Positions 37,854-49,655 of a stretch of 64,000 bases of DNA are shown one piece after another. The stretch is taken from positions 90,667-154,666 of the forward strand of contig DASZPH010000038.1 in the NCBI GenBank assembly GCA_035550375.1, read 5' to 3'. Numbering within the stretch: the stretch's first letter is position 1; each line of letters starts with the position of its first letter. The position numbers and the translations under genes are program-made. The stretch is from Pirellulales bacterium (lineage in GTDB: Bacteria; Planctomycetota; Planctomycetia; Pirellulales; JAICIG01). Below the pieces are notes generated by a model. It made no database searches and had not been told where the DNA came from. It saw only the letters and a program-made list of their open reading frames with translations.

Positions 37854-39482
37854 TCACGCGCCGGCGAGCGCTGGTTGATCGAGCGCGCCTTTAGCACAGT
37901 CTAGCGCTTGTCGCACGCTCGCCAGCAGTACGTCGGGGTCGAAGGGCTTTTCGATGAGCTGCACGCCCGCTTCAACCAGAAATCGAACCTCTCCGGTTTC
38001 CGGGGCGTAGCCGCTGCAGAACAGAACCGGCAGCGACTTGTTGCTTCGCTTGATATGCTCGTAGACGTCACGCCCGTTCAAATTCGGCATGACCGCGTCG
38101 AGCAGGGCCAGATCGATGGCGTCTTGATTCGCGTCAAACAGTCGTACGGCTTCTGCGCCATCCGAGGCGGCGATTACCGAGTAGCCGGCCTGGGACAGCA
38201 TTCGCGTCGCCAGTGCTCGCACCATCGGCTCGTCCTCTGCCAGCAAAATGGTTTCGCCCTCGTCATGCCTGGTTACGCCCTCGCCAGCTTCCTCGCCGCC
38301 GCCGAGTCTTTCACCCGCTTCGGCCGGCGCGCCTAGGGGCAGGTAGATCTTGAAGTTGGTGCCCACCCTCGGCTCGGAAAAGACGTGAATCAGGCCGCCG
38401 TGCTGCTGCACGATACCGTATACGGACGCCAAGGCCCGCCCCCGGCCGTCCCTCGCCTCGTTCGACGCGAAGAACGGGTCGAACAGCCGCCCTCGTTCCT
38501 CCAGAGGGACTCCGCATCCGGTGTCGGCTACGGACAAGAGCAGGTAGGTTCCCGGCTGGGCGAGCGGATGAAACTGGCAGAAGTGTTCGCCCAGCTCGAC
38601 GCGCTCGGTTCGCAGCATGAGCGTGCCTCCATCGGGCATGGAGTCCCGAGCGTTCAGGCAGAGATCCAGCAACGCCTGGTGCAGCAATTCCGGGTCCGCC
38701 GAAAACGAACCGACATCGGCCGCCAGGTCGGTTTCGAGTTCGATGCGATGGTCGAGCAGGGGCTTCAGCACTTCAATCAGCCGGGCCGCAAACTTGCCCG
38801 AATAGATCGCCTGACGATGGATCGCGAGCCGCGGGCTGAAACCCTGCAATTGTCGCGTGAGGGCGGCCGCACGATCCGACGCGTTCATCACCTGTTCCAG
38901 ATCCTGATAGCGCTGATCGTCGACCGGCAGCCCCTCCATGGCATAGCGGGTGTAGCCCCGGATCACCTGCAACAGGTTGTTGAAAACGTGAGCGATTCCG
39001 CTGGCGAGCGATCCGGCCGTCTCCAGCCGCTGAGACTCCGCAGGCCGCTCGACCCCGCGCGGCGCTGGCGAGGCAGCCGAATACCGTCGCCGCTGCGTGG
39101 CTTCTTGCAGCGCCGCATCGAGCGCCCCGTCGGAGAGCTCACCCCAGGACAAAACGGCAAGGGCGCCCCGTGCGAGCGCGGTCTCCCTCGTCGCGTCGTC
39201 TGATTCGGCGACCACCAACACGATGGAGATCGAAGGATCTGCTTGCCGCAAGGCGGCCAGCGTCGCCCGATTGTTGCCGTTTCCCAACTGGGCGTCCAGG
39301 ACAACGACGTCGCACGATTGGCCGGACAGATACCCCAGAACGGCCGTTAGGCTGCCGGCCCGCACGAAATCGCAGCCGCTTTGCGTCGACGCCGCGCTCA
39401 AGAGAAGCGCCTGCCGAGCGTCGTCGGCGGCGGCGAAGACGATGCGCAAAGGCACGTCGGCGAAAGGTCGTTCCTGCTGCAT
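37854..39482 (-). CDS. hybrid histidine kinase (degenerate REC-like N-terminus, HisKA, HATPase, REC)
   Basis: H-box ASGIAHVFNNLLQVIRGY and G-box DTGCGVP. C-terminal REC ([26 protein letters not shown]). The N-terminal 120 aa are receiver-shaped but lack the conserved Lys. Confidence 0.85.
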   Translation of the reverse strand: MQQERPFADVPLRIVFAAADDARQALLLSAASTQSGCDFVRAGSLTAVLGYLSGQSCDVVVLDAQLGNGNNRATLAALRQADPSISIVLVVAESDDATRETALARGALAVLSWGELSDGALDAALQEATQRRRYSAASPAPRGVERPAESQRLETAGSLASGIAHVFNNLLQVIRGYTRYAMEGLPVDDQRYQDLEQVMNASDRAAALTRQLQGFSPRLAIHRQAIYSGKFAARLIEVLKPLLDHRIELETDLAADVGSFSADPELLHQALLDLCLNARDSMPDGGTLMLRTERVELGEHFCQFHPLAQPGTYLLLSVADTGCGVPLEERGRLFDPFFASNEARDGRGRALASVYGIVQQHGGLIHVFSEPRVGTNFKIYLPLGAPAEAGERLGGGEEAGEGVTRHDEGETILLAEDEPMVRALATRMLSQAGYSVIAASDGAEAVRLFDANQDAIDLALLDAVMPNLNGRDVYEHIKRSNKSLPVLFCSGYAPETGEVRFLVEAGVQLIEKPFDPDVLLASVRQALDCAKGALDQPALAGA

Positions 39483-39703
39483 TCTGACGCCCCCAGTTCG
39501 TCCCCTTTGACGGTCGCGTTAAGGAAGTATAGTCGCGCATGAGCTGTCGCTGCCTTGCGCCCTCGCGCTGGTCTCTGCATGAGTGTGAACAGCGGCCGCC
39601 GCCTGCGAGAAGGTAGAAATGAGCAACAGCTTCGCGCGCCGGACGGCGGCGGTGCGATGGCGGTCAGGGCGAACCGAGGCGACGTTGAGGGGCCAACCAC
39701 CAG

Positions 39704-40360
39704 ATGAAGATTCTGATCGTCGCGGATGCGGCCCCGATTCTGTTCACGCTGGAGCAGTTCCTCACCGAGCAGGGCTACGCCACCGTTGCGTCGAAGTCGG
39801 CCGATGATGCCCTGGAGAAGCTGGCCGGCGATCCTTCGATCCGGCTCGTCTTATGCGACTTGCTCCTGCGCAACACGAACGGTATTCAGCTCTGCAATGC
39901 CGCCAACCAGATTACGCACCTTGGCGACGACGGAGTGCTGCCGCCTCCTAAATTCATCTTTATGGCCGCTCCCGCCATTGGCGGCGGGGAGCACGACGAG
40001 CGGCTGCGCACCGAAGGCCGATTGCTTTCCGACGGAGAAGTGATTCAAAAGCCGATCGACCGGATTGAGTTGCTCGGCAGGATCCGCGATCTGGCCCAAC
40101 CTTCGCGGCCGAGGCGTCCAGCCCCTCGACGCGAAATGGAATCTGCGGACGAGGCGCTCCACGACGAGGCGTCGCCGGCCCTCTTGGGACAGATCACCGA
40201 CGATCACAAAAGCATGAACGAGCGTCTCAGCGCGCTTGAGTCCAGCCATCGTCAGATTCGCGGGCGCCTGCAGCAGATTGAAAAACGCCTGGGCAGGCTC
40301 GACGATCGCAGGCGGCGGGCCCGATCGCAGGCGCCGCAGGTTGAGAACAAAGCACCCTGA
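39704..40360 (+). CDS. receiver-like protein with C-terminal coiled coil
   Basis: The REC scaffold has the phospho-Asp position present (LVLCDLLL). The acidic pocket is VADAA instead of DD(D/E), and MAAP stands where T/S is expected. The C-terminus has heptad-like sequence LSALESSHRQIRGRLQQIEKRLGRL. Confidence 0.7.
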   Translation: MKILIVADAAPILFTLEQFLTEQGYATVASKSADDALEKLAGDPSIRLVLCDLLLRNTNGIQLCNAANQITHLGDDGVLPPPKFIFMAAPAIGGGEHDERLRTEGRLLSDGEVIQKPIDRIELLGRIRDLAQPSRPRRPAPRREMESADEALHDEASPALLGQITDDHKSMNERLSALESSHRQIRGRLQQIEKRLGRLDDRRRRARSQAPQVENKAP

Positions 40361-40425
40361 TCCGCGAAGGACGACCGCCCCAAGGCTCTCCATCGAACGG
40401 TTATTGCCGCCTCTCCCGCCCCACC

Positions 40426-41079
40426 TTACCGCCCGATCACTTGCAGGACGGGGGCCGACCGAACCCTGCCTGGCCGGCCCGCTGCCGCCACCGCCATCGC
40501 CAGCGATGCCATGGAGTCGACCTCCAACCGCTCGTAAACCGCGGACCGGCGAAACTGCACGGTGCGCACGCTGACTCCCAGACGCTTGGCAATCGTTTTG
40601 CTTGGAATGTTGTCCAGCATCATTTCCATCACGCACCGTTCGTCGTCGCTCAGTGCGTCCAGCTTCGCCAGAATGTCGTTCGTTTGCGATGCTTCGGCCC
40701 TCACCAACTCGTCATGTGCCAAGGCGTTCTTCAACGTTTCCCACAGCTCGTGGCCCCGACACGGCTTTTCGAGGAAGGCAAACACGCCCTTCTTTAGCGC
40801 GGCGACCGCCAGCGGGATGTCGCCGTAACCCGTGACCATTACGACCGGCAGCAGAATTCGCCTAGCGTTCAGCTCGTCGACGACCTCCATTCCATTCATC
40901 CCCGGCATGCGCATGTCGAGGACAACGCAACCAGGCATTTCTCCTGTACATTTTGCCAGGAATGCTTCACCGCGATGAAACGGCAAAACGGGAACGCGTA
41001 ACGTCTCGGCAATAGCCGCGATCGCTTCGCGGCTGCCTTGGTCGTCGTCGACGACGAACACGGAAGGAAGGCTCGCCAT
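40426..41079 (-). CDS. FixJ/LuxR-family response regulator
   Basis: ATG 41079 (MASLPSVFVVDDDQG). VVLDMRMPGMNG, LEKP. HTH: LSDDERCVMEMMLDNIPSKTIAKRLGVSVRTVQFRRSAVYERL. The longest ORF (to 41340) adds an implausible 87-aa leader. Confidence 0.85.
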   Translation of the reverse strand: MASLPSVFVVDDDQGSREAIAAIAETLRVPVLPFHRGEAFLAKCTGEMPGCVVLDMRMPGMNGMEVVDELNARRILLPVVMVTGYGDIPLAVAALKKGVFAFLEKPCRGHELWETLKNALAHDELVRAEASQTNDILAKLDALSDDERCVMEMMLDNIPSKTIAKRLGVSVRTVQFRRSAVYERLEVDSMASLAMAVAAAGRPGRVRSAPVLQVIGR

Positions 41080-41518
41080 GGCCCTGTACTCCGCCTTACA
41101 TGGTCGTGTGCGTGCCCCGCACCCAAAACGGGCAAGCAACCGTGGTCGATCGCCTGCCTTGCAGCGTTCGATGGATTCGCAGTTTCGCGTGCCGCAATCA
41201 AACGCGAAGGGCGTTTCGCTTACGTTTATCGGGGGGAGACGAGTTCCCACTTTACGCTCGGAGAGAGGGGAAATGCCCTTGGGCGTTTCCGCGCGATAAG
41301 TCACGCGCCTCCTTGCAAGTTCTGATCCGAAACCGCACACTCCTTTCGCTCCGAGTCTTGCCTGGAAAACGCAACGTCACATCCTTCGCACTCGATGGGG
41401 AACTCGCCATTGCGCCCGCGCGCATTCGGCTGCCCTGACACGTAAGGAGGCCCTTTCACCCGGTGTGTCATAATGAAAATGATTACGCGAACCTCTTCCT
41501 TCCAAGGAACGACGCGGG

Positions 41519-42139
41519 ATGACGGTACCAACTGTTTTTGTGGTCGACGGCGAGCACGATGCACGACAATCGACGTACGAGTTACTGCGGGCGAATGGCC
41601 ACGCGGTGACCCTTTTCTCGACACCGGGTGCTTTTGATCAGGCTTACAGCCCTGGCGAGGCGGGGTGCCTGGTGCTCGACATCTCGCTTCCGAACCTTAG
41701 CGGTCTGGCACTACTGCAGAGTCTGTCGCGGCGCAGCATCGGACTGCCCGTAATTGCCGTCAGCGGCGAGGCCACAACGCGCATGGCCGTCGATGCCATC
41801 AAACAGGGCGCGATGGAATTCATCGAGAAGCCCATCTGCCCGGTCACCCTGTTGGCACAGGTTCGCTATGCCCTCGACCGTGACGCGGAGAACCGCGAAC
41901 GAGAGGCTCGCATCGCGCTCACCCGGCAGCGATTGGCGACTCTGACGATGCGCGAACGCGAGGTTTTCGACTTACTCGTTGCCGCCTGGTCGCCCAAGCA
42001 AATCGCCGCACGACTCGGCATCAGCCCAAAAACCAGCGACGTCCACCGTGCGCGCGTCCTGGCTAAGATGCACGTCGAGAGCGTCGTGAAGTTGGCACGC
42101 GTCGCGCACCGTGTCGGTCTGCTGCAGGAAGCGGAGTAG
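41519..42139 (+). CDS. FixJ/LuxR-family response regulator
   Basis: VFVVDGEHD, LVLDISLPNLSG, IEKP. HTH: LTMREREVFDLLVAAWSPKQIAARLGISPKTSDVHRARVLAKM. Confidence 0.85.
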   Translation: MTVPTVFVVDGEHDARQSTYELLRANGHAVTLFSTPGAFDQAYSPGEAGCLVLDISLPNLSGLALLQSLSRRSIGLPVIAVSGEATTRMAVDAIKQGAMEFIEKPICPVTLLAQVRYALDRDAENREREARIALTRQRLATLTMREREVFDLLVAAWSPKQIAARLGISPKTSDVHRARVLAKMHVESVVKLARVAHRVGLLQEAE

Positions 42140-42183
42140 CAGGTATCTCGCCGGCCGTTTCCTCACCCGGGCACACCGGCGTC

Positions 42184-44079
42184 TTAGACGGCATGGGGTG
42201 CATTGAGGACCTCGCGCACGATGCGCAACAAGACTTCGGGATCATAAGGCTTTGCGACTAGAGTCACCCCCTGGCCAATCAGCGATTTGATCTGGGCCCG
42301 CTCGGGGTGGTAGCCACTGCAGAAAATCACGGGCAGTTCGGGCTTGGCCAGTTTGATGCGATGGTACACCTCCGGGCCGCTCAGTTTCGGCATGACCGCG
42401 TCGAGTAGCGCCAGGGAGATACTCTCCGCCTGATCCTTGAACGTTTCTACCGCCTCATTGCCATCACATGCAATTACCACCCTGTATCCCGCGCCGGTGA
42501 GAACCCGAACCGCCACGTCCCGCAGCATCGGCTCGTCTTCAGCGACCAAAATCGTCTCTGTGCCTCCCAAGGCGGGCGCCGATTCCTCTTGCTCCGTTTC
42601 CGCAGCAAGACCCTTGCCGACGGGCAGGTAGATTTTAATGGTTGTGCCTAGTCCGACCTGGCTGTCGACGACGATCGAGCCTTCATGTTGTTGGACGACG
42701 CCGTAGACCATCGCCAGCCCCAGACCCGTTCCGCGACCGACCTCCTTGGTCGTGAAGAAGGGCTCGAAGATTTTTGCCTGGACGTCGGGAGACATGCCAA
42801 GCCCGCTGTCAACAACCGAGAAGAGGACGTACGAACCCGGCTTGGCCACGCAATGACGCTCGCACTCCTCGGCGGCAAGCTCCACTCGCTGGGTCGCGAG
42901 GGTCAGCCGTCCTCCTTTGGGCATGGCATCGCGTGCGTTGATGCACAGGTTCAGCAGCATCTGATGAAGCAAATCCGGATCGGCATAAACCGAGTTGGCC
43001 CTCTTGTCCAAGCGGAGATTAAGGTCGATTTGTTCTCCGATCAGCGGGCGCAGCAGCCTCACCAGGTCGGTCACGACCTCTTGGGGGTCGCAGATGGTCC
43101 GCTTAAGCACCTGGCGACGACTGAAGCCCAGGAGCTGGCGGGTCAGCTTAATGGCCCGGTCGGTCGCCTTGATCACCTGGGCCAGATCCTGGTAGCGCTG
43201 GTGGGAGGGCGATAGTCCGTCCATGCCGAACTTGGTGTACCCGCGTATGGCTTGCAGCAGGTTGTTGAACTCGTGGGCGATGCCCCCCGCCAGTTGCCCG
43301 ACGGACTCCAGCTTTTGTGCCTGGCGGAATTGCTCGTCCCGCCGTCTGAGGTCGGCCTCAACCTTGTTGCGCTCGGCGATTTCGTCGCGGAGCCGCTGAT
43401 TCTGGAGCAGCACCTTCTTCTCGGCACGGCGATACGCGGTCTGGGCGCGCACCTGGCGGACGGCAAGCTGCTGCATAACGAAAACGCTCCGCCGAATGAA
43501 TAACAAGAGGAAGAAATCTTCGCAGCAAGCCCAGGCCGTGTGTTCTAACGCCCGCCACGCGGCCGGGGCGGACGTTCCGAATACAGACTGAGGGTACAAA
43601 GTCCCCCGGATAATGTGGTCGAGCGCCACGACAAGCGTTCCCGCGATCAATACGGACCAGCGGCGATAGGAGGCGAGCAATGCCAGCGAGGCGAACACGT
43701 GGAAGTGTGTTTCGATCCGTCCGCCCGTGAGGTGGATGAGCAATGCCGACCAGAGCATCTGGGCAATCGCGTTGATGTGGCGCGTCAGCCCCGAACCGGC
43801 GTGAACCAGCGACATGTACGCGGGGAACAGCGTCAGCGCGCCGCCCAGGAAGATCGCGGCGAAAACGTGCAGATGTATGGAGCTCTCCGTGCCTTCCCAG
43901 GCTCGGGGAGAATAGCGGAAGGCCAGGACGATCGCCAGCAGCCATTGGACGACCATAACCTTTGCCACGATCCAATCGGTGCGGCGAGCGGTCGCCTGCA
44001 ACTGGTGATCGACGAGGCCGTCGGCCTGCCGGCGCCTCGCAGATCGTTCGTTGTTCGTCGCTTTCGACAGCGAGACCAT
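42184..44079 (-). CDS. membrane hybrid histidine kinase (His-rich multi-TM module, HisKA, HATPase, REC)
   Basis: The N-terminal TM module is paralogous to that of 20461..22452 ([16 protein letters not shown]). H-box [19 protein letters not shown]-boxes DSGLGMS and [14 protein letters not shown]-terminal REC ([26 protein letters not shown]). Confidence 0.85.
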
Positions 44080-44300: not shown

Positions 44301-44343
44301 CAAAAGAAAAACGGCGGCCCGATTCCTCGTGAATCGGGCCGCC
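44301..44343 (-). terminator. rho-independent terminator of the YTV-repeat gene
   Basis: On the minus strand: GGCGGCCCGATTC-acgag-GAATCGGGCCGCC, a perfect 13-bp stem, followed by GTTTTTCTTTTG. It lies 58 nt downstream of the stop codon. Confidence 0.8.
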
Positions 44344-44400
44344 GCGGGCTGGCGAGACCAGGCGCTCCGCTGAATCCTCAGCAGGAGTAGTACTGCCTCC

Positions 44401-46878
44401 CTAGTTGCAGCAGGGGACCGGGCAGCAGACCTGCACCGGAACCTGCTTGCAGATCACTTTGGGCACGCAGCGGGTCACCGTGCAGGCGACCTGCTTCGGC
44501 ACGCATCGCGTGACCTGGATCGTCTTCGTGTAGTGCACCGGCTTGCAGACGCAATACGGCACTTGCTTCACGTGACGCTCGGCCACCATGTGGCAGACCT
44601 GATAGGGCACCTCTTTGGTGTAGCACTCCTTGACCAGGCGGCACACCTTGTAGCAGCAGGTCTTCACCCGGTGCTCAGGCACCATGTGGCAGACCTGATA
44701 GGTGCAGGTCTTGACTCGTTGCTCAGGCACCATGCGGCAGACCTGATAGCAGCAAGTCTTCACGCGGTGCTCAGGCACCATGTGGCACACCTGGTAGGTG
44801 CAACGACGCACGTGGCATTCCGGAACCATTCGGCAGACCTGGTAGGTGCAGGTCTTGACCCGCTGCTCCGGCACCATGTGGCAGACCTGGTAGGTGCAGG
44901 TCTTCGTCCGGCACTCAGGCACCATCTTGCAGACCTGGTAGGTGCAGGTCTTGACCCGTTGCTCGGGCACCATGTGGCAGACCTGGTAGGTGCAAACCTG
45001 CGTGCGGCACTCGGGCACCATCTTGCAGACCTGGTAGGTGCAGGTCTTCACGCGATGCTCAGGCACCATGTGGCAGACCTGGTAGGTGCAGGTCTTGACG
45101 CGGCACTCGGGCACCATCTTGCAGACCTGATAGGTGCAGGTCTTCACGCGTTGCTCAGGCACCATGTGGCAGACCTGGTAGGTGCAGACCTTCGTCCGGC
45201 ACTCGGGCACCATCTTGCAGACCTGGTAGGTGCAAGTCTTCACGCGGTTCTCACGAACCATGTGGCAGACCTGGTAGGTGCAGGTCTTCACGCGGCACTC
45301 CGGCACCATCTTGCAGACCTGGTAGGTGCAGGTCTTCACGCGGTGCTCAGGCACCATGTGGCAGACCTGATAGGTGCAGGTCTTGACGCACTGCTCAGGC
45401 ACCATCTTGCAGACCTGGTAGGGCACCCGCTTCTCGTGGCACTCGGCCACCATGTGGCAGACCTGATAGGTGCAGGTCTTGACGCACTGCTCGGGCACCA
45501 TCTTGCAGACCTGATAGGTGCAGGTCTTGCTGCGGGTCTCAGCCACGTACTTCACGCAGTTGACCGTCCGCTCCTGGACCTCAGGCACCCAAACCTTCTT
45601 GCAGACCTTGACCGGCGGGCACTGCACCTGGCAGGTCCGCACGGGGCCGGGGCAATAGACGCACCGGCAACGGCAGGCATCCCAGGTCCAGCAGCCGGGC
45701 TCCTGCACGCACTTGGTGATCACGCGGCCGGGGCACTCGCTGACTTGGGTTTCCCAATGTCCGCAGCAGACCTGGACGGTCTTGGTGTAGTGAACCGGCT
45801 TGCACACGTTGTAGCAGATCGTCCGCTCGCGGGTCTCGTAGACGGGCTTGCAGACCGTGTAGCAGATCTGGCGGGTCTTGGTCTCGTAGACGGGCTTGCA
45901 GACCGTATAGCGGCACACCCGCTCGCGGGTCTCGTAGACCGGTTTGCAGACGGTGTAGCAGATCTGGCGGGTCTTGGTCTCGTAGACGGGCTTGCAGACC
46001 GTGTAGTGGATCTCGCGGGTCTTCGTCTCGTAGACGGGCTTGCAGACCGTGTACGGGATCTCGCGGGTCTTGGTCTCATAGACGGGCTTGCAGACCGTGT
46101 ACGGGATCTCGCAGGTCTTGGTTTCCCAGACGGGCTTGCAGACCGTGTAGTGGATCTCGCGGGTCTTGGTCTCGTAGACCGGCTTGCAGACCGTGTACGG
46201 GATCTGGCAAGTCTTGGTCTCGTAGACCGGCTTGCAGACCGTGTAGTTGATCGTGCGAGTCTTGGTCTCGTAGACCGGCTTGCAAACCGTGTAGCAGATC
46301 TCGCGGGTCTTGGTCTCGTAGACCGGCTTGCAGACCGTGTACGGGATCTCCCGGACCTTGGTCTCCCAGACGGGCTTGCAGACCGTGTAGTGGATCTCGC
46401 GGGTCTTCGTCTCGTAGACCGGTTTGCAGACCGTGTAGCAGATCTCGCGGGTCTTGGTCTCGTAGACCGGCTTGCAGACCGTGTACGGGATCTGGCAGGT
46501 CTTGGTTTCCCAGACCGGCTTGCAGACCGAGCAATTCACGGTGCGGGTCTTGGTCTCCCAGACCGGCTTGCAGACCGTGTACTCGCAGTTGCGGACACGC
46601 TGCTCCTGCACGTACTTCACGCAGTTGACGGTGCGCTCCTCGCAAACGGGCTCGTACACCGTCTTGTAACAGGTGTAGTTTTGCCGCTCGTAGACCACCT
46701 CCTTGCAGGTCTTCATCACCGTATGGCATTGCTGCTTGCAGCAGGCGTAGCTGACGGTGTCGCAGCTACGCGCGCAACATTGGTACCTCGCCGCGCCGCA
46801 ATAGCTGGCGTCGGCGGAACTCCATGCGAGCGCCGTGAGGGCCACGGCGATCAGCGGAGTTCTCGAGAGAGCTTTCAT
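44401..46878 (-). CDS. secreted cysteine-rich YTV-type tandem-repeat protein
   Basis: 825-aa ORF with signal peptide MKALSRTPLIAVALTALAWSSADA. Contains 17 x YTVCKPV(Y/W)ETKTREIx and 20 x YQVC(K/R/H)MVPExRVKTCT units. I count 112 Cys by hand. The motif matches my recollection of the Pfam YTV family from Rhodopirellula. Confidence 0.9.
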   Translation of the reverse strand: MKALSRTPLIAVALTALAWSSADASYCGAARYQCCARSCDTVSYACCKQQCHTVMKTCKEVVYERQNYTCYKTVYEPVCEERTVNCVKYVQEQRVRNCEYTVCKPVWETKTRTVNCSVCKPVWETKTCQIPYTVCKPVYETKTREICYTVCKPVYETKTREIHYTVCKPVWETKVREIPYTVCKPVYETKTREICYTVCKPVYETKTRTINYTVCKPVYETKTCQIPYTVCKPVYETKTREIHYTVCKPVWETKTCEIPYTVCKPVYETKTREIPYTVCKPVYETKTREIHYTVCKPVYETKTRQICYTVCKPVYETRERVCRYTVCKPVYETKTRQICYTVCKPVYETRERTICYNVCKPVHYTKTVQVCCGHWETQVSECPGRVITKCVQEPGCWTWDACRCRCVYCPGPVRTCQVQCPPVKVCKKVWVPEVQERTVNCVKYVAETRSKTCTYQVCKMVPEQCVKTCTYQVCHMVAECHEKRVPYQVCKMVPEQCVKTCTYQVCHMVPEHRVKTCTYQVCKMVPECRVKTCTYQVCHMVRENRVKTCTYQVCKMVPECRTKVCTYQVCHMVPEQRVKTCTYQVCKMVPECRVKTCTYQVCHMVPEHRVKTCTYQVCKMVPECRTQVCTYQVCHMVPEQRVKTCTYQVCKMVPECRTKTCTYQVCHMVPEQRVKTCTYQVCRMVPECHVRRCTYQVCHMVPEHRVKTCCYQVCRMVPEQRVKTCTYQVCHMVPEHRVKTCCYKVCRLVKECYTKEVPYQVCHMVAERHVKQVPYCVCKPVHYTKTIQVTRCVPKQVACTVTRCVPKVICKQVPVQVCCPVPCCN
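44557..45516 (-). repeat. 20 x 48-bp in-frame tandem repeat (YQVC[KRH]MVPE type; 96-bp super-period)
   Basis: Phase verified at the codon level at 45516. ...caccatgtggcagacctggtaggtgca... (His type) alternates with ...caccatcttgcagacctggtaggtgca... (Lys type) every 48 bp. Confidence 0.9.
45766..46581 (-). repeat. 17 x 48-bp in-frame tandem repeat (YTVCKPVYETKTREI type)
   Basis: The repeating unit cttgcagaccgtgta(g/c)...ctcgcgggtcttggtctcgtagac(c/g)gg is seen 17 times with no indels. Confidence 0.9.
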
Positions 46879-47505
46879 ACTCCTGCCTCCTCCAAGGACT
46901 TGAACGAAAAGGTAGGGCCTGGTCGGACGAGCTCATGCTCGTCTACGGGTAACTTCGGCCGCACATTCCGCGTGCATTAGCTCGGTCGCATAGCTGGCAC
47001 GAACATCCGGCTCGCCCCGGACGCCGTAGGCGATGCCACACTAGCGATCGATTGGCCGTATGCCAGTGACTATCGTCAAGGCAGGCGAACTGCTTGATCC
47101 TCGCGGCCTAAAACGGCTGCGGATCTGGCGATATTTGGAGAGGCCCGTGGAACTGCAAGCTTTTTGCCGTGCAGGCCCACGACACCTTATTCATCGGCTT
47201 TTCGGGCTGCACTCTATGCACCAACGTTGCCGCGCGGCGCGGTGCGGCAGGCCTGCCGTGAGGGTTGCGCGGGTTAGGTGATATGGAGAGGTCGGCGCAG
47301 TCTGCGCGCGAACCCACGGGGCGTGTTGGCTCGACCTACGCTTGTCCAGGGTCCATTCGGGCTGGCGGAGCCACTGGGCCACGAGGGGCCGGTGAAGGGC
47401 CGGACTTTCGCTTGTTAAGATGGGTAGGAGTCTCTAAAGTAGGCTTCCCTGAAACGGCTCTCTCCACAATCCACAGCACCCGCGGGCTTGCTTGCCGGGC
47501 CTTGA

Positions 47506-48168
47506 ATGCGTCAGCGGAAGAGGAAACCTCCTACCCCCCCCAGCGATGGCTCCATCCCCAAGGCGGTCGTCAACCGGCTCAGCCTCTATTTGAGGGAACT
47601 TGAGCATCTTGTGCGCGACGGCTACGAAACGACCAGTTCCAACCGGCTGGGACGCGTTTTGGGTTTCACCGATGCCCAGGTCCGCAAAGACCTGGCCTAC
47701 TTCGGCCATTTTGGCTATCCGGGGATCGGTTATCGTTGCGACGAGCTGATCACGGCCATCAAACGCATTCTCGGTACAGATCAGCAGTGGCCGGCCGCGC
47801 TGGTCGGCGTGGGCAACCTGGGCCGTGCGCTCCTCGGCTACCGAGGCTTTCCGCAACGGGGATTCCGCATCGTGGCCGCCTTCGATGCGGCCGCAGACAA
47901 AGTGGGAACCGTCATCGAGGGGCTGGTCGTACAACACCTCGATCGCTTGCCCGATGTGGCCGCAGCCCATAGGATACGTCTCGGCATGATCGCCGTCCCG
48001 TCCGCCTCGGCGCAGCTTGTCGCTGACCGGCTGGTGGCGGTTGGCGTCGAAGGCATTTTGAACTTCGCCCCAGTGACGATCAACCTGCCCGACCATGTCA
48101 GTCAGGTGGGGGTCGACCTGGCCATCGAGTTGGAACAGCTTGCCTTCTCGGTCGTGAACCGGAAATGA
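47506..48168 (+). CDS. rex: redox-sensing transcriptional repressor Rex
   Basis: N-terminal winged helix (IPKAVVNRLSLYLRELEHL...SSNRLGRVLGFTDAQVRKDLAYFGHFGYPGIGY) and Rossmann motif LVGVGNLGRALLGY. Confidence 0.9.
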   Translation: MRQRKRKPPTPPSDGSIPKAVVNRLSLYLRELEHLVRDGYETTSSNRLGRVLGFTDAQVRKDLAYFGHFGYPGIGYRCDELITAIKRILGTDQQWPAALVGVGNLGRALLGYRGFPQRGFRIVAAFDAAADKVGTVIEGLVVQHLDRLPDVAAAHRIRLGMIAVPSASAQLVADRLVAVGVEGILNFAPVTINLPDHVSQVGVDLAIELEQLAFSVVNRK

Positions 48169-48295
48169 CGGTCGCGTTAGTTCCCTCTCCCCTTGGGAGC
48201 GGGTGAGGGCGGCCCAAAGTTCCGATTAGCGTGACGGGCGAAGCGAACTTGCCGCGCTTGCCGCCTGTCAGCACAATGACAAGAATGTCGGCACT

Positions 48296-48366
48296 TACCC
48301 GGTGGTGTAATGGTAACACTAGGGACTTTGGCTCCCTCATTCTAGGTTCGAGTCCTAGCCGGGTAG
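48296..48366 (+). tRNA. tRNA-Gln (anticodon UUG)
   Basis: Cloverleaf folded by hand. Acceptor TACCCGG/CCGGGTA, D stem GTGT/ACAC, anticodon stem AGGGA/TCCCT with loop CT-TTG-GC, T arm CTAGG-TTCGAGT-CCTAG, discriminator G. CCA is not encoded. Confidence 0.9.
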
Positions 48367-48383
48367 TTTTTGGAGATCCCGCA

Positions 48384-49655
48384 GTGATTCCGCCCGTACG
48401 ACTTGGCGGTTCTCGCAGCAACAGAGTGTTGCGCCTTGTCGTGCTTCTTGTATCAGGCGTCGTCTTCGCGCCGGCTGAAAGCCGTTCTGCCGAGGCGACG
48501 AGCGACGACCGGCCGGTCGTCGTTTCTCAGAAGGCCCTCGATATCCACCGTTCGGCCTTGGTGTTTGACGGCCACAACGACCTGCCCTGGAAACTGCGCG
48601 ACGAGTTCGGCGGATCGCTCGACAAATGCGACCTCACGCACCCGCAGCCCAAGTTACAGACCGATATTCCCCGCTTAAGACGAGGGGGGGTGGGAGCCCA
48701 GTTCTGGTCGGTTTATGTGCCGGCCGAAACGCGGCAGGCGGGCACGGCCCTGCGCGACACGCTCGAGCAGATCGATCTGGTCTATCGGCTCGTCGCCCGC
48801 TATCCCGACACGTTCGAGTTGGCCCTCACGGCTCAAGACGTCGAGCGCATTCATGGGCAAGGGAAGATCGCCTCGCTGATCGGCGTTGAAGGAGGCCACT
48901 CGATCCAGGAATCGATCGGCGCGCTGCGGCAGCTTTACCGGCTCGGTGCACGTTACATGACGCTCACCCATAGCGACACCCTCTCCTGGGCCGACTCGGC
49001 AACCGACGAACCCGAACACGGCGGCCTGACTGCCTTCGGAGAAGAGGTCGTCCGCGAAATGAACCGCCTGGGCATGCTGGTCGATCTTTCTCATGTCTCG
49101 GCCGATACGATGCGCGATGCGCTGCGCGTCTCGCGGGCGCCGGTCATCGCCTCGCACTCGTCGGCCTATGGTGTGGCACCCCATAGCCGCAACGTGCCCG
49201 ACGACGTCTTGAAGCTTGTGGCCGAGAACGGCGGCGTGGTGATGGTCAACTTCTATTCCGGTTACGTCGTTCCCGAAGCGGCCCGCATCCGGGCCGACTT
49301 CCTCGAGGCCCGGCGCGAATTGAGGGCTCGCTTCGCCGACCCGGCCGAATACGACGCCGCCGTGAAGCGCTGGGACGACGCCCATCCGATCTCAGCCGGA
49401 ACGGTTCGCACGGTGGTCGACCACATCGACCACATCGTCCGGGTGGCCGGCGTCGATCACGTGGGGATCGGCTCCGATTTCGACGGCGTATCGATGGTTC
49501 CCCGCCAGCTCGAAGATGTGTCGTGCTACCCCAACATCACGCAAGAACTGTTGAACCGGGGATATGGAGAGCGCGACATCGTTAAGATCCTGGGCGCCAA
49601 CATTCTGCGCGCCTTGCGCGCCGCGGAAGAGACGGCCGCAAAGGCGTCAAGGTAA
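48384..49655 (+). CDS. membrane dipeptidase (peptidase family M19)
   Basis: FDGHNDLPWKLR, GVEGGH, LTHS, ASHSSAY, IGSDFDG. GTG 48384 is preceded by GGAG at -12. It leaves the tRNA clear and gives a signal-anchor N-terminus (RVLRLVVLLVSGVVFA). Confidence 0.85.
   Translation: MIPPVRLGGSRSNRVLRLVVLLVSGVVFAPAESRSAEATSDDRPVVVSQKALDIHRSALVFDGHNDLPWKLRDEFGGSLDKCDLTHPQPKLQTDIPRLRRGGVGAQFWSVYVPAETRQAGTALRDTLEQIDLVYRLVARYPDTFELALTAQDVERIHGQGKIASLIGVEGGHSIQESIGALRQLYRLGARYMTLTHSDTLSWADSATDEPEHGGLTAFGEEVVREMNRLGMLVDLSHVSADTMRDALRVSRAPVIASHSSAYGVAPHSRNVPDDVLKLVAENGGVVMVNFYSGYVVPEAARIRADFLEARRELRARFADPAEYDAAVKRWDDAHPISAGTVRTVVDHIDHIVRVAGVDHVGIGSDFDGVSMVPRQLEDVSCYPNITQELLNRGYGERDIVKILGANILRALRAAEETAAKASR

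Follow-up and report, generated by a model that had tools for sequence, protein, structure and literature searches.

A giant length-matched beta-hairpin as the proposed architecture of a cysteine-rich YTV protein from uncultured Pirellulales

The makeup and mechanics of the planctomycete wall have been debated for decades, with a protein sacculus set against thin peptidoglycan. YTV-domain wall proteins of Rhodopirellula baltica were reportedly described by Hieu et al. in 2008, and we know of no published structure or mechanism for any member of the family. Here we consider a YTV gene in a 64,000-nucleotide stretch of the genome of an uncultured Pirellulales bacterium (contig DASZPH010000038.1, positions 90,667 to 154,666; this whole stretch is referred to below as the window). 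Its product is probably a Sec-exported structural envelope protein that folds as one giant, length-matched antiparallel hairpin with outward-facing cysteines, a proposal that draws on structure prediction and on the comparison of orthologs.

YTV proteins were first found in the walls of Rhodopirellula (PMC5287468, PMC8567305, PMC12673574) and are major constituents of Gemmata walls boiled in sodium dodecyl sulfate (SDS) (PMC5287468); in wall preparations of Tuwongella they are the top two proteins and were recovered in the SDS fraction only, and family members have been detected by mass spectrometry (PMC8567305). The family is confined to the class Planctomycetia (PMC8567305, PMC12673574). In Planctopirus limnophila, one YTV protein is essential and has been suggested to set wall rigidity via its cysteines (PMC10632474), so that the remark in the first-pass annotation of this DNA that the family has no known function is out of date. 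In a contact-based modeling study of 2021, the family (PF07639) appears with a modest score and without a counterpart in the PDB (PMC8078820), and our literature search for a hairpin architecture of YTV proteins found no description of one.

The protein encoded in the window carries the same phylum-restricted domain as the known wall proteins of Planctomycetia (those of R. baltica, Gemmata obscuriglobus [GobsU_38067, GobsU_28375, and GobsU_21360], Tuwongella immobilis, and P. limnophila) and shares with them a predicted signal peptide, a high cysteine content, and 16-residue YTV repeats, which it arranges in the manner of the family as two arrays around a conserved central knot. It differs in coming from another lineage and in being much more regular and more cysteine rich. 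YTV proteins are the most prominent specific proteins of the planctomycete wall, and the comparison made here provides a concrete, falsifiable architecture for them.

The window protein and its relatives

The gene lies at positions 44401..46878 on the minus strand and starts with ATG. Its product of 825 amino acids contains 112 cysteines (13.6%), 16.5% valine, 12.5% threonine, and 24 histidines, and two-thirds of the chain is made up of V, C, T, K, Y, and E. The first-pass annotation had counted 825 residues, 112 cysteines, and 17 plus 20 in-phase units of 16 residues in this open reading frame (ORF), and a recount in the 16-residue register gave the same figures. From the N terminus, its parts are as follows.

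46807..46878, minus strand: predicted signal peptide, residues 1-24, MKALSRTPLIAVALTALAWSSADA then SY, with the signal peptidase I site after ADA
46582..46806, minus strand: N-terminal cysteine-rich cap and lead-in, residues 25-99, NYTCYKTVYE...ERTVNCVKYVQEQR; the cap has 8 cysteines and would form the N side of the hairpin base
45766..46581, minus strand: array A, residues 100-371, the putative N arm; 17 units of 16 residues, the last of them of the terminator type, YNVCKPVHYTKTVQVC
45517..45765, minus strand: central region, residues 372-454; tip knot at residues 383-422, then the second lead-in, ERTVNCVKYVAETR
44557..45516, minus strand: array B, residues 455-774, the putative C arm; 20 units of 16 residues, with a K/H alternation that gives a 32-residue super-period
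44401..44556, minus strand: terminator-type unit and C-terminal cysteine-rich cap, residues 775-825, with the stop codon; YCVCKPVHYTKTIQVT RCVPKQVACTVTRCVPKVICKQVPVQVCCPVPCCN; the putative C side of the hairpin base

Read from the sequence, the leader of the protein divides into MKALSR, TPLIAVALTALAW, and SSADA/SY (the slash marking the cleavage site) in an n/h/c layout, and this pattern, together with an A-x-A site before [YF]CG, is kept in >50 orthologs. The units of array A follow YTVCKPV[YW]ETKTREIx and those of array B follow YQVC[KHR]MVPExRVKTCT, both without indels in the 16-residue register; within array B, position 5 alternates between K and H, and position 10 alternates among C, H, and Q. 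After array B comes a 21st unit, at residue 775 (YCVCKPVHYTKTIQVT), which is of the same terminator type as the unit that closes array A (Y[NC]VCKPVHYTKT[VI]QV). The two halves of the protein are homologous; each opens with ERTVNCVKYV.E.R and each closes with the same terminator unit; the lead-in of the N-terminal cap recurs at residue 436. Tandem Repeats Finder finds 18.7 copies of a 48-bp repeat at 44633-45529 and 15.7 copies at 45832-46583, with super-periods of 96 bp in array B, where it reflects the K/H alternation, and of 144 bp in array A. The tip knot at residues 383-422 holds 8 of the 10 cysteines of the linker that runs from GHW to KVWVP.

Membership in the YTV family, which the first-pass annotation had proposed, was confirmed by profile search, in which PF07639 matched over both arrays (560 bits against a cutoff of 21, E = 1.4e-172, 21 stretches); scanned singly, array A gave E = 1.3e-125 and array B gave E = 2.1e-52, and the N-terminal cap, linker, and C-terminal cap had no match to Pfam YTV. 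The envelope-protein identity of YTV proteins is already known biology, and this gene is another member of the family. The window protein matched no NCBIfam model, a sequence search of the PDB returned nothing below E = 0.08, and a search of the 64-kb window for a second YTV gene found none.

Two sets of homologs were assembled. The first was a protein search with 154 matches, all 154 of which carry PF07639; the best of them is 57% identical over 44% of the query, and composition was compared over the first 120. In those 120 homologs, self-identity at a lag of 16 residues ranges from 0.14 to 0.36, against 0.59 in the window protein, and cysteine content has a median of 3.0% (range, 0.6 to 16%), against 13.6%. 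The 16-residue period is family wide and is seen also among the low-cysteine homologs, and the earlier view of cysteine as part of the family fold is not supported at a median of 3%. The second set came from a scan of one representative genome per species, which gave 183 relatives, of which 79 loci were kept; almost all are titled as metagenome-assembled genomes of Pirellulales, Thermoguttaceae, Planctomycetaceae, or Planctomycetia. Their products contain 8.5 to 19% cysteine and reach a lag-16 identity of 0.65, and the largest number of units, 62, is found in a protein of 1251-1275 residues, depending on the start chosen (L034). Because the loci from the genome scan match it in cysteine content, regularity, and unit number, the window protein is a typical member of a widespread cysteine-rich YTV subfamily of Pirellulales and Thermoguttaceae. 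The homologs share a common plan, consisting of a signal peptide, a cysteine-rich cap, a lead-in, array A, the knot, a second lead-in, array B, and a C-terminal cap, in which the knot (GHWE..PGPV..EPGCWxWDPCxCxCVY..QCPP..KVWVPE) and the cap motif (PYTVTRCVP+VVCKQVPVxVCCP) are kept. The window protein has the parts of this subfamily in the same order, from the signal peptide through the YTVTRCVP..VCCP cap.

Some relatives depart from the general picture. Three of the kept loci are labeled Candidatus Kuenenia (L010, L057, and L065), all three with a rex gene upstream of the YTV gene, and one is labeled Candidatus Zipacnadia (L022); these contigs are probably mis-binned or mislabeled, and would otherwise be a real exception to the restriction of the family to one class. 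Five proteins (P0003, P0005, P0010, P0024, and P0044) continue for approximately 150 residues past the cap in a C-terminal extension with matches resembling tetratricopeptide repeats (PF14559, PF13432, and PF07719), which could be a docking domain at the hairpin base. In three loci (L013, L049, and L055) and one protein (P0007), the YTV gene contains many frameshifts, and parts of it are translated in the two alternative frames of the repeat, as LLHGLQAGLRDQD or RSASRSTRPRP. Since YTV genes are full of frameshifts in several public assemblies, deposited YTV protein predictions are often frame chimeras or fragments.

Long ORFs also cross the repeat in the window in other frames, one of 815 amino acids on the antisense strand (44533..46980, plus strand) and two of 217 and 119 amino acids on the minus strand (46076..46729 and 45720..46079); these arise from the periodicity of the GC-rich codons and are not genes. 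The existence of several such frames on both strands is what would commend the idea that the repeat is an open but noncoding tandem array or that the antisense ORF of 815 amino acids is the real gene. This idea can hardly be credited, given that the Shine-Dalgarno sequence, the signal peptide, the 560-bit Pfam match, and the conserved nonrepetitive caps and tip are found only in the minus-strand frame, that this frame and this architecture recur in 183 relatives, and that proteins of the family have been detected by mass spectrometry (PMC8567305).

Pairing of the two arrays

AlphaFold2 (AF2) was run on the window protein with 115 sequences and on P0036, a low-cysteine homolog of 461 residues that was chosen because its divergent repeats make the register less ambiguous. 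In the window model, confidence by the predicted local distance difference test (pLDDT) is high at residues ~345-455, the tip (87-92), and at both caps (78-87), and the strands assigned by DSSP fall into length-matched pairs, 342-382 with 423-463, 279-336 with 485-542, and 49-80 with 789-820. Four short strands make up the tip between 342-382 and 423-463, and at the caps the strand at 49-80 (pLDDT, 78-87) pairs with that at 789-820 (83-86). Length-matched strand pairs of this kind are, in a predicted model, the signature of one giant antiparallel hairpin. The P0036 model has a mean pLDDT of 73, with values of 80-94 over residues 30-370 and of 91-94 at the tip; its strands, 25-100 and 103-166, followed by a tip of six short strands and then 229-292 and 295-370, are mirror symmetric, with i + j = 395 throughout. 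The register is the same in both models, such that position a of an A unit stands opposite position b of a B unit when a + b = 12 modulo 16.

The comparison of orthologs addresses the same pairing independently of the models. Arms were delimited with regular-expression anchors, from YTCYKT to GHW for the N arm and from VWVP to YTVTRCVP for the C arm; these were clean, whereas anchors from BLAST or hidden Markov models (HMMs) were noisier, as the lead-in resembles the linker region and several clades were mis-anchored. Across the orthologs, arm length varies between 193 and 545 residues with 16 distinct values, and tips span 30-60 residues, yet the N arm exceeds the C arm by exactly 3 residues in 27 of 35 orthologs; with the HMM anchors the same constancy is seen in 16 of 24. 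In several lineages the arrays include variant units of 14 residues, and the order of 14- and 16-residue units from the tip outward agrees between the arms, with mirror-order matches of 6/6, 10/10, 3/3, 8/8, 7/7, 4/4, and 4/4, all at a single offset; when the arms are instead compared in parallel, from N to C, they agree less well (2/6, 8/10, 3/3, 5/8, 4/7, 2, and 2). Since mirror order at the protein level cannot arise by duplication of DNA, selection on pairing is indicated. Higher-order periods are also common to both arms, being 46/30/122/76 in L004, 62/124 in L009, L034, and L045, 74/104 in L008, and 30/60 in four others, with 64 also among them. Finally, in 17 proteins, that of the window included, a variant A unit (..E[RK]VCx) lies at a tip distance of 49 and a variant B unit (..EK[RH][IV]P) at 55; duplication of the A variant at 113 or 97 goes together with duplication of the B variant at 119 or 103, and the offset of 6 is that predicted by the AF2 register, in which B1 faces A11. 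Structure prediction and four independent patterns among the orthologs thus support the proposition that arrays A and B are the two arms of one giant hairpin. The arms are not variable everywhere: in a low-cysteine clade of Pirellulaceae type (P0021-P0080), they are fixed at 140 and 140 residues between anchors in 10 of 13 proteins tested, and variability in arm length seems, from these sequences, to be a property of the cysteine-rich lineage.

The first-pass annotation had instead favored a disulfide-laddered beta-solenoid, in which each 16-residue unit would supply a full or a half turn of a parallel beta-helix and the cysteines would stack into a ladder. The precedent is the beetle antifreeze protein TmAFP, a parallel beta-helix of 12-residue turns with intraturn disulfides, and the likeness is real insofar as both proteins have short, cysteine-containing tandem repeats, are threonine rich, and are beta structured. 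The strict 16-residue period, the invariant cysteine positions, and the beta-type alternation are all in keeping with such a fold, and the low AF2 confidence inside the arrays of the window protein leaves some room for another fold there. However, the AF2 strands run continuously for 41-76 residues in mirror-symmetric pairs, without a turn every 16 residues, and a solenoid gives no reason for the residue-exact matching of arms or for the mirror order of short and variant units. Moreover, most family members keep the 16-residue period at 1-3% cysteine, and the fold consequently cannot depend on a cysteine ladder. The window protein differs from TmAFP in being predicted as two very long antiparallel strands with cysteines that do not face one another and that most of the family can dispense with, and neither the PDB sequence search nor Foldseek produced a significant match. 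AF2 and the comparative tests together favor antiparallel pairing of A with B, in which cysteines rarely face each other, over an in-register ladder, and we regard the solenoid as very unlikely.

Several observations weigh against the hairpin. The mean pLDDT of the window model is 51.9, its predicted template modeling score is 0.27, and pLDDT lies below 35 over most of both arrays; AF2 has a tendency to render repeats as long hairpins, and the register was read from DSSP strand boundaries and not from model coordinates. A Foldseek search of the PDB with both models found no significant neighbor (best E = 1.7e-3, with a probability of 0.35 and template modeling scores of 0.08-0.11), and an isolated two-stranded ribbon of ~100 nm is without solved precedent there. 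Export, oxidation, and wall location are carried over to the window protein by analogy with other genera. Lastly, the window protein is itself out of balance: between the anchors, its N arm has 305 residues and its C arm 366, a difference of -61 that lies 64 residues, or 4 units, from the usual value, and it must carry a bulge or be mis-assembled. As to the Foldseek neighbors, the weak ones (phi29 tail knob gp9, lysenin, aerolysin, epsilon toxin, and the membrane attack complex) are long beta-hairpins and resemble the present model in having two antiparallel strands that are tens of residues long. Their strands comprise 30-60 residues and occur only inside oligomeric barrels, whereas YTV arms would comprise 140-590 residues and lack an amphipathic, lipid-facing pattern.

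Array A has 17 units, against 21 in array B with the terminator unit counted, and in the AF2 model of the window protein the sum of paired positions is 869 at the caps, which keep the canonical base register, and 805 at the tip, the 64 surplus residues being taken up as low-confidence bulges in the C arm. Arms also fail to balance in eight other orthologs, where the difference is in each case made up of complete units or super-repeats; all eight are on contigs of <=150 kb, and five have names given by short-read assemblers (k141_ and NODE_). The orthologs on chromosomes or on contigs of 0.2-7 Mb are all balanced, and these large contigs presumably stem from long-read assemblies, judging by the names of the records. 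In the closest genome, SMAG_U6082 (89%), the YTV gene is split over two contig ends (L077 and L044). The latter has the same 20 + 1 B units as the window, and the two fragments align without gaps to nucleotides 1-857 and 466-2478 of the window gene at 87% identity, but the overlap of 392 nucleotides between them that an array A of 17 units needs is not there (identity over this stretch is 83%); a search for an exact overlap between the two ends found none, the best match being 249 nucleotides at 90%. Because its fragments fail to overlap over the required 392 nucleotides, array A of this closest relative must have more than 17 units.

The first-pass annotation had raised the concern that the repeat number might be an artifact of assembly. 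For array A the concern is justified, as it is 4 units short of array B when 27 of 35 orthologs are balanced, but collapse was not inevitable: the window array is not a trivially collapsible perfect repeat, because at the DNA level its units share 75-97% identity, with no exact repeat longer than 64 bp. Whether array A lost 4 units in the assembly or by a real deletion is a roughly even question that leans toward artifact. The requirement that arms balance offers a check on the assembly quality of YTV genes that needs the sequence alone, and the matched changes amount to compensatory evolution between two separate tandem-repeat arrays of one gene.

Antiparallel pairing of A with B need not take place within one chain. 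Domain-swapped dimers or staggered filaments, giving fibers or sheets in place of closed hairpins, would lead equally to matched arms and mirror order; the imbalance of the window protein and of other orthologs amounts to complete units or super-repeats, and on this view the 4 additional units in the C arm of the window protein might serve as a sticky end. Among known structures, the closest analogues are long hairpins, too, and these function only as parts of oligomeric sheets or barrels. Against pairing between chains stand the short conserved tip, which is modeled as a tight turn joining the arms (pLDDT, 87-92 in the window protein and 91-94 in P0036), the pairing of N and C caps at the canonical register, and the balance of all megabase-contig orthologs, which leaves no systematic sticky end. 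We consider interchain pairing rather unlikely and retain the closed hairpin as the basis for what follows.

Cysteines, register, and the wall layer

The AF2 register sets A8 (Tyr/Trp) against B4 (Cys), A4 (Cys) against B8 (Pro), and A6 (Pro) against B6 (Met), B4 being the most conserved cysteine of the family. Both conserved prolines fall on positions of the same parity, which, as a matter of reasoning, would suit the non-hydrogen-bonded sites of a two-stranded ribbon. In the 27 balanced orthologs, a cysteine faces another cysteine for 35 of 1,089 N-arm cysteines, against ~142 expected by chance. The cysteine counts of the two arms are correlated but unequal, and only 18 of 36 orthologs have an even number of cysteines in the mature protein.

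Other arrangements of the cysteines were considered and set aside. Pairing of all cysteines within the molecule was rejected, as counts per arm are unequal and total parity is random. High counts of facing cysteines across the hairpin are obtained only at registers shifted by 3, 7, 8, or 12 residues; odd shifts would place the conserved prolines in hydrogen-bonded sites, and a shift of -4 would place K opposite K and R opposite R, although both of these objections were reasoned and not taken from coordinates.

Cysteines on the same face of one extended strand would be too far apart to bond. Because facing pairs are rare and same-face cysteines too distant, most thiols in the ribbon model would be free or bonded to other molecules, which fits an SDS-resistant, cross-linked layer and not an intrachain ladder. 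Likewise, because they are rarely opposite one another at this register, the cysteines would be displayed on the faces of the ribbon.

We suggest the following sequence of events. The window protein would be exported via Sec and its signal peptide removed, and the chain would fold back on itself at the small cysteine-rich knot at residues ~383-422. Array A, the N arm, would then zip antiparallel to array B, the C arm, each 16-residue A unit facing one B unit in a fixed register, to give a two-stranded beta-ribbon of ~330-400 residues per arm, with the N- and C-terminal cysteine-rich caps paired at its base. By standard beta-strand geometry, such a ribbon would measure ~100 nm if straight. The displayed cysteines most likely form disulfide bonds with neighboring ribbons or other wall proteins, and such intermolecular disulfides would give rise to the protein layer, insoluble in SDS, that contains the members of the family. 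If the hairpin is correct, ribbon length is set by repeat number, and expansions, 2-residue deletions, and variant units in one array are mirrored in the other; the dependence of rod length on unit number, the balance of arms, and solubilization by reductant all become testable.

The general role of a secreted envelope scaffold, put forward in the first-pass annotation, finds support in the prominence of family members in the SDS-boiled walls of Gemmata and Tuwongella, and by analogy with these the window protein may be a wall scaffold. A conceptual parallel is offered by the chlamydial proteins OmcA and OmcB, from within the Planctomycetes-Verrucomicrobia-Chlamydiae superphylum, which form a disulfide cross-linked, detergent-insoluble layer and confer envelope rigidity where peptidoglycan is reduced. 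The likeness lies in the disulfide cross-linked protein layer, which for the window protein is putative; no homology was detected (Pfam finds YTV only), and OmcB lacks 16-residue repeats and has no predicted hairpin fold.

A different use of the cysteines would be to present, together with the histidines, a periplasmic surface for metal binding or redox buffering in the manner of metallothionein, with rex, the gene of a redox-sensing repressor, providing redox-linked regulation. The 112 cysteines and 24 histidines, the K/H alternation at position 5 of array B, and the C/H/Q alternation at position 10 could be so read, as could the divergent rex gene in 34 of 65 loci. However, the spacer contains no canonical Rex operator, the leader and YTV gene occur without rex too, low-cysteine members share the fold and the wall location, and the cysteines are placed by the repeat and not in the CxxC or CxC clusters typical of metal sites. 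Such a function is, in our judgment, most improbable as the explanation of the protein.

Leader, rex, and neighboring genes

The first-pass annotation noted a terminator downstream of the YTV gene and a noncoding region of 627 bp upstream. The terminator is confirmed, with a 15-bp stem and a T-run; the spacer to rex is indeed 627 bp but is not empty, as its last ~200 nucleotides form a conserved leader. The elements bordering the gene are as follows.

44301..44345, minus strand: intrinsic terminator; 15-bp stem at 44345..44311 with 11 G-C pairs and a 5-nucleotide loop, then TTTTCTTTTG
46886..46893, minus strand: Shine-Dalgarno sequence GGAGGAGG, 8 nucleotides before the ATG; kept as GAAGGAGGCA in ortholog leaders
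46879..47085, minus strand: conserved 5' leader and promoter region, from alignments of ortholog upstream regions; present also in ~215 nucleotides upstream of the YTV ORF in L001-L078
47079..47071, minus strand: TTGACGATA, candidate -35 element, in a block near -200
~46982..46953, minus strand: GCTAATG, a short hairpin, and CCGAA, in a block near -100
46943..46926, minus strand: variable-sequence hairpin near -60, with a stem of 5-8 bp whose sequence differs between loci
46924..46915, minus strand: GACCAGGCCC, in a block at -45
47506..48168, plus strand: rex (redox-sensing repressor), with Pfam Put_DNA-bind_N and CoA_binding; NCBIfam Rex, 254 bits against a cutoff of 126
48295..48367, plus strand: tRNA-Gln (anticodon TTG), within the ORF at 48231..49655

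When sequences were folded one by one, the variable hairpin formed in 36 loci, its stem differing among them (average energy, -10.3 kcal/mol; average z, -1.9), but RNAalifold on the MAFFT alignment of leaders returned no structure, the variable hairpin being misaligned. The composite leader motif has a single occurrence in the 64-kb window; across the 1.15 Mb of loci it has 36, of which 34 are directly upstream of a YTV ORF, and the leader is conserved across clades, including those without rex. An Rfam scan of the 64-kb window matched tRNA only and gave no family at the leader, which is a candidate new cis-regulatory or mRNA-stabilizing RNA element specific to YTV genes. Taken as a whole, the proposition that YTV proteins constitute a fold class without solved counterpart, namely, an antiparallel ribbon of 140 to ~600 residues per arm whose arms are kept matched by selection, which serves as a cysteine-cross-linked, load-bearing wall fabric and is expressed from an mRNA with a dedicated structured 5' leader, seems to us evenly poised.

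In 34 of the 65 loci with enough flanking sequence, a rex gene lies upstream of the YTV gene in divergent orientation, at 59-87% amino acid identity, and rex is the only neighbor conserved with the YTV gene. The partnership amounts to synteny in about half of the loci, and a functional link is putative; a search of positions 46879-47505 for a Rex operator of the TGTGA-N6-TCACA type with <=2 mismatches found none, but the planctomycete operator may diverge from that consensus. Beyond rex come the tRNA-Gln gene and then a gene for an M19 membrane dipeptidase, whose true start must be downstream of the tRNA because the latter lies within the ORF at 48231..49655.

On the downstream side, a two-component cluster at 37854..44079 adjoins the YTV terminator. 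Its genes are as follows.

37854..39482 and 42184..44079, minus strand: hybrid histidine kinase/receiver proteins
39704..40360, plus strand: receiver-only protein
40426..41340, minus strand: LuxR-type response regulator
41519..42139, plus strand: LuxR-type response regulator

None of the genes of this cluster is syntenic with the YTV gene in the other loci. The GC content of the window is uniform, at 0.60-0.64.

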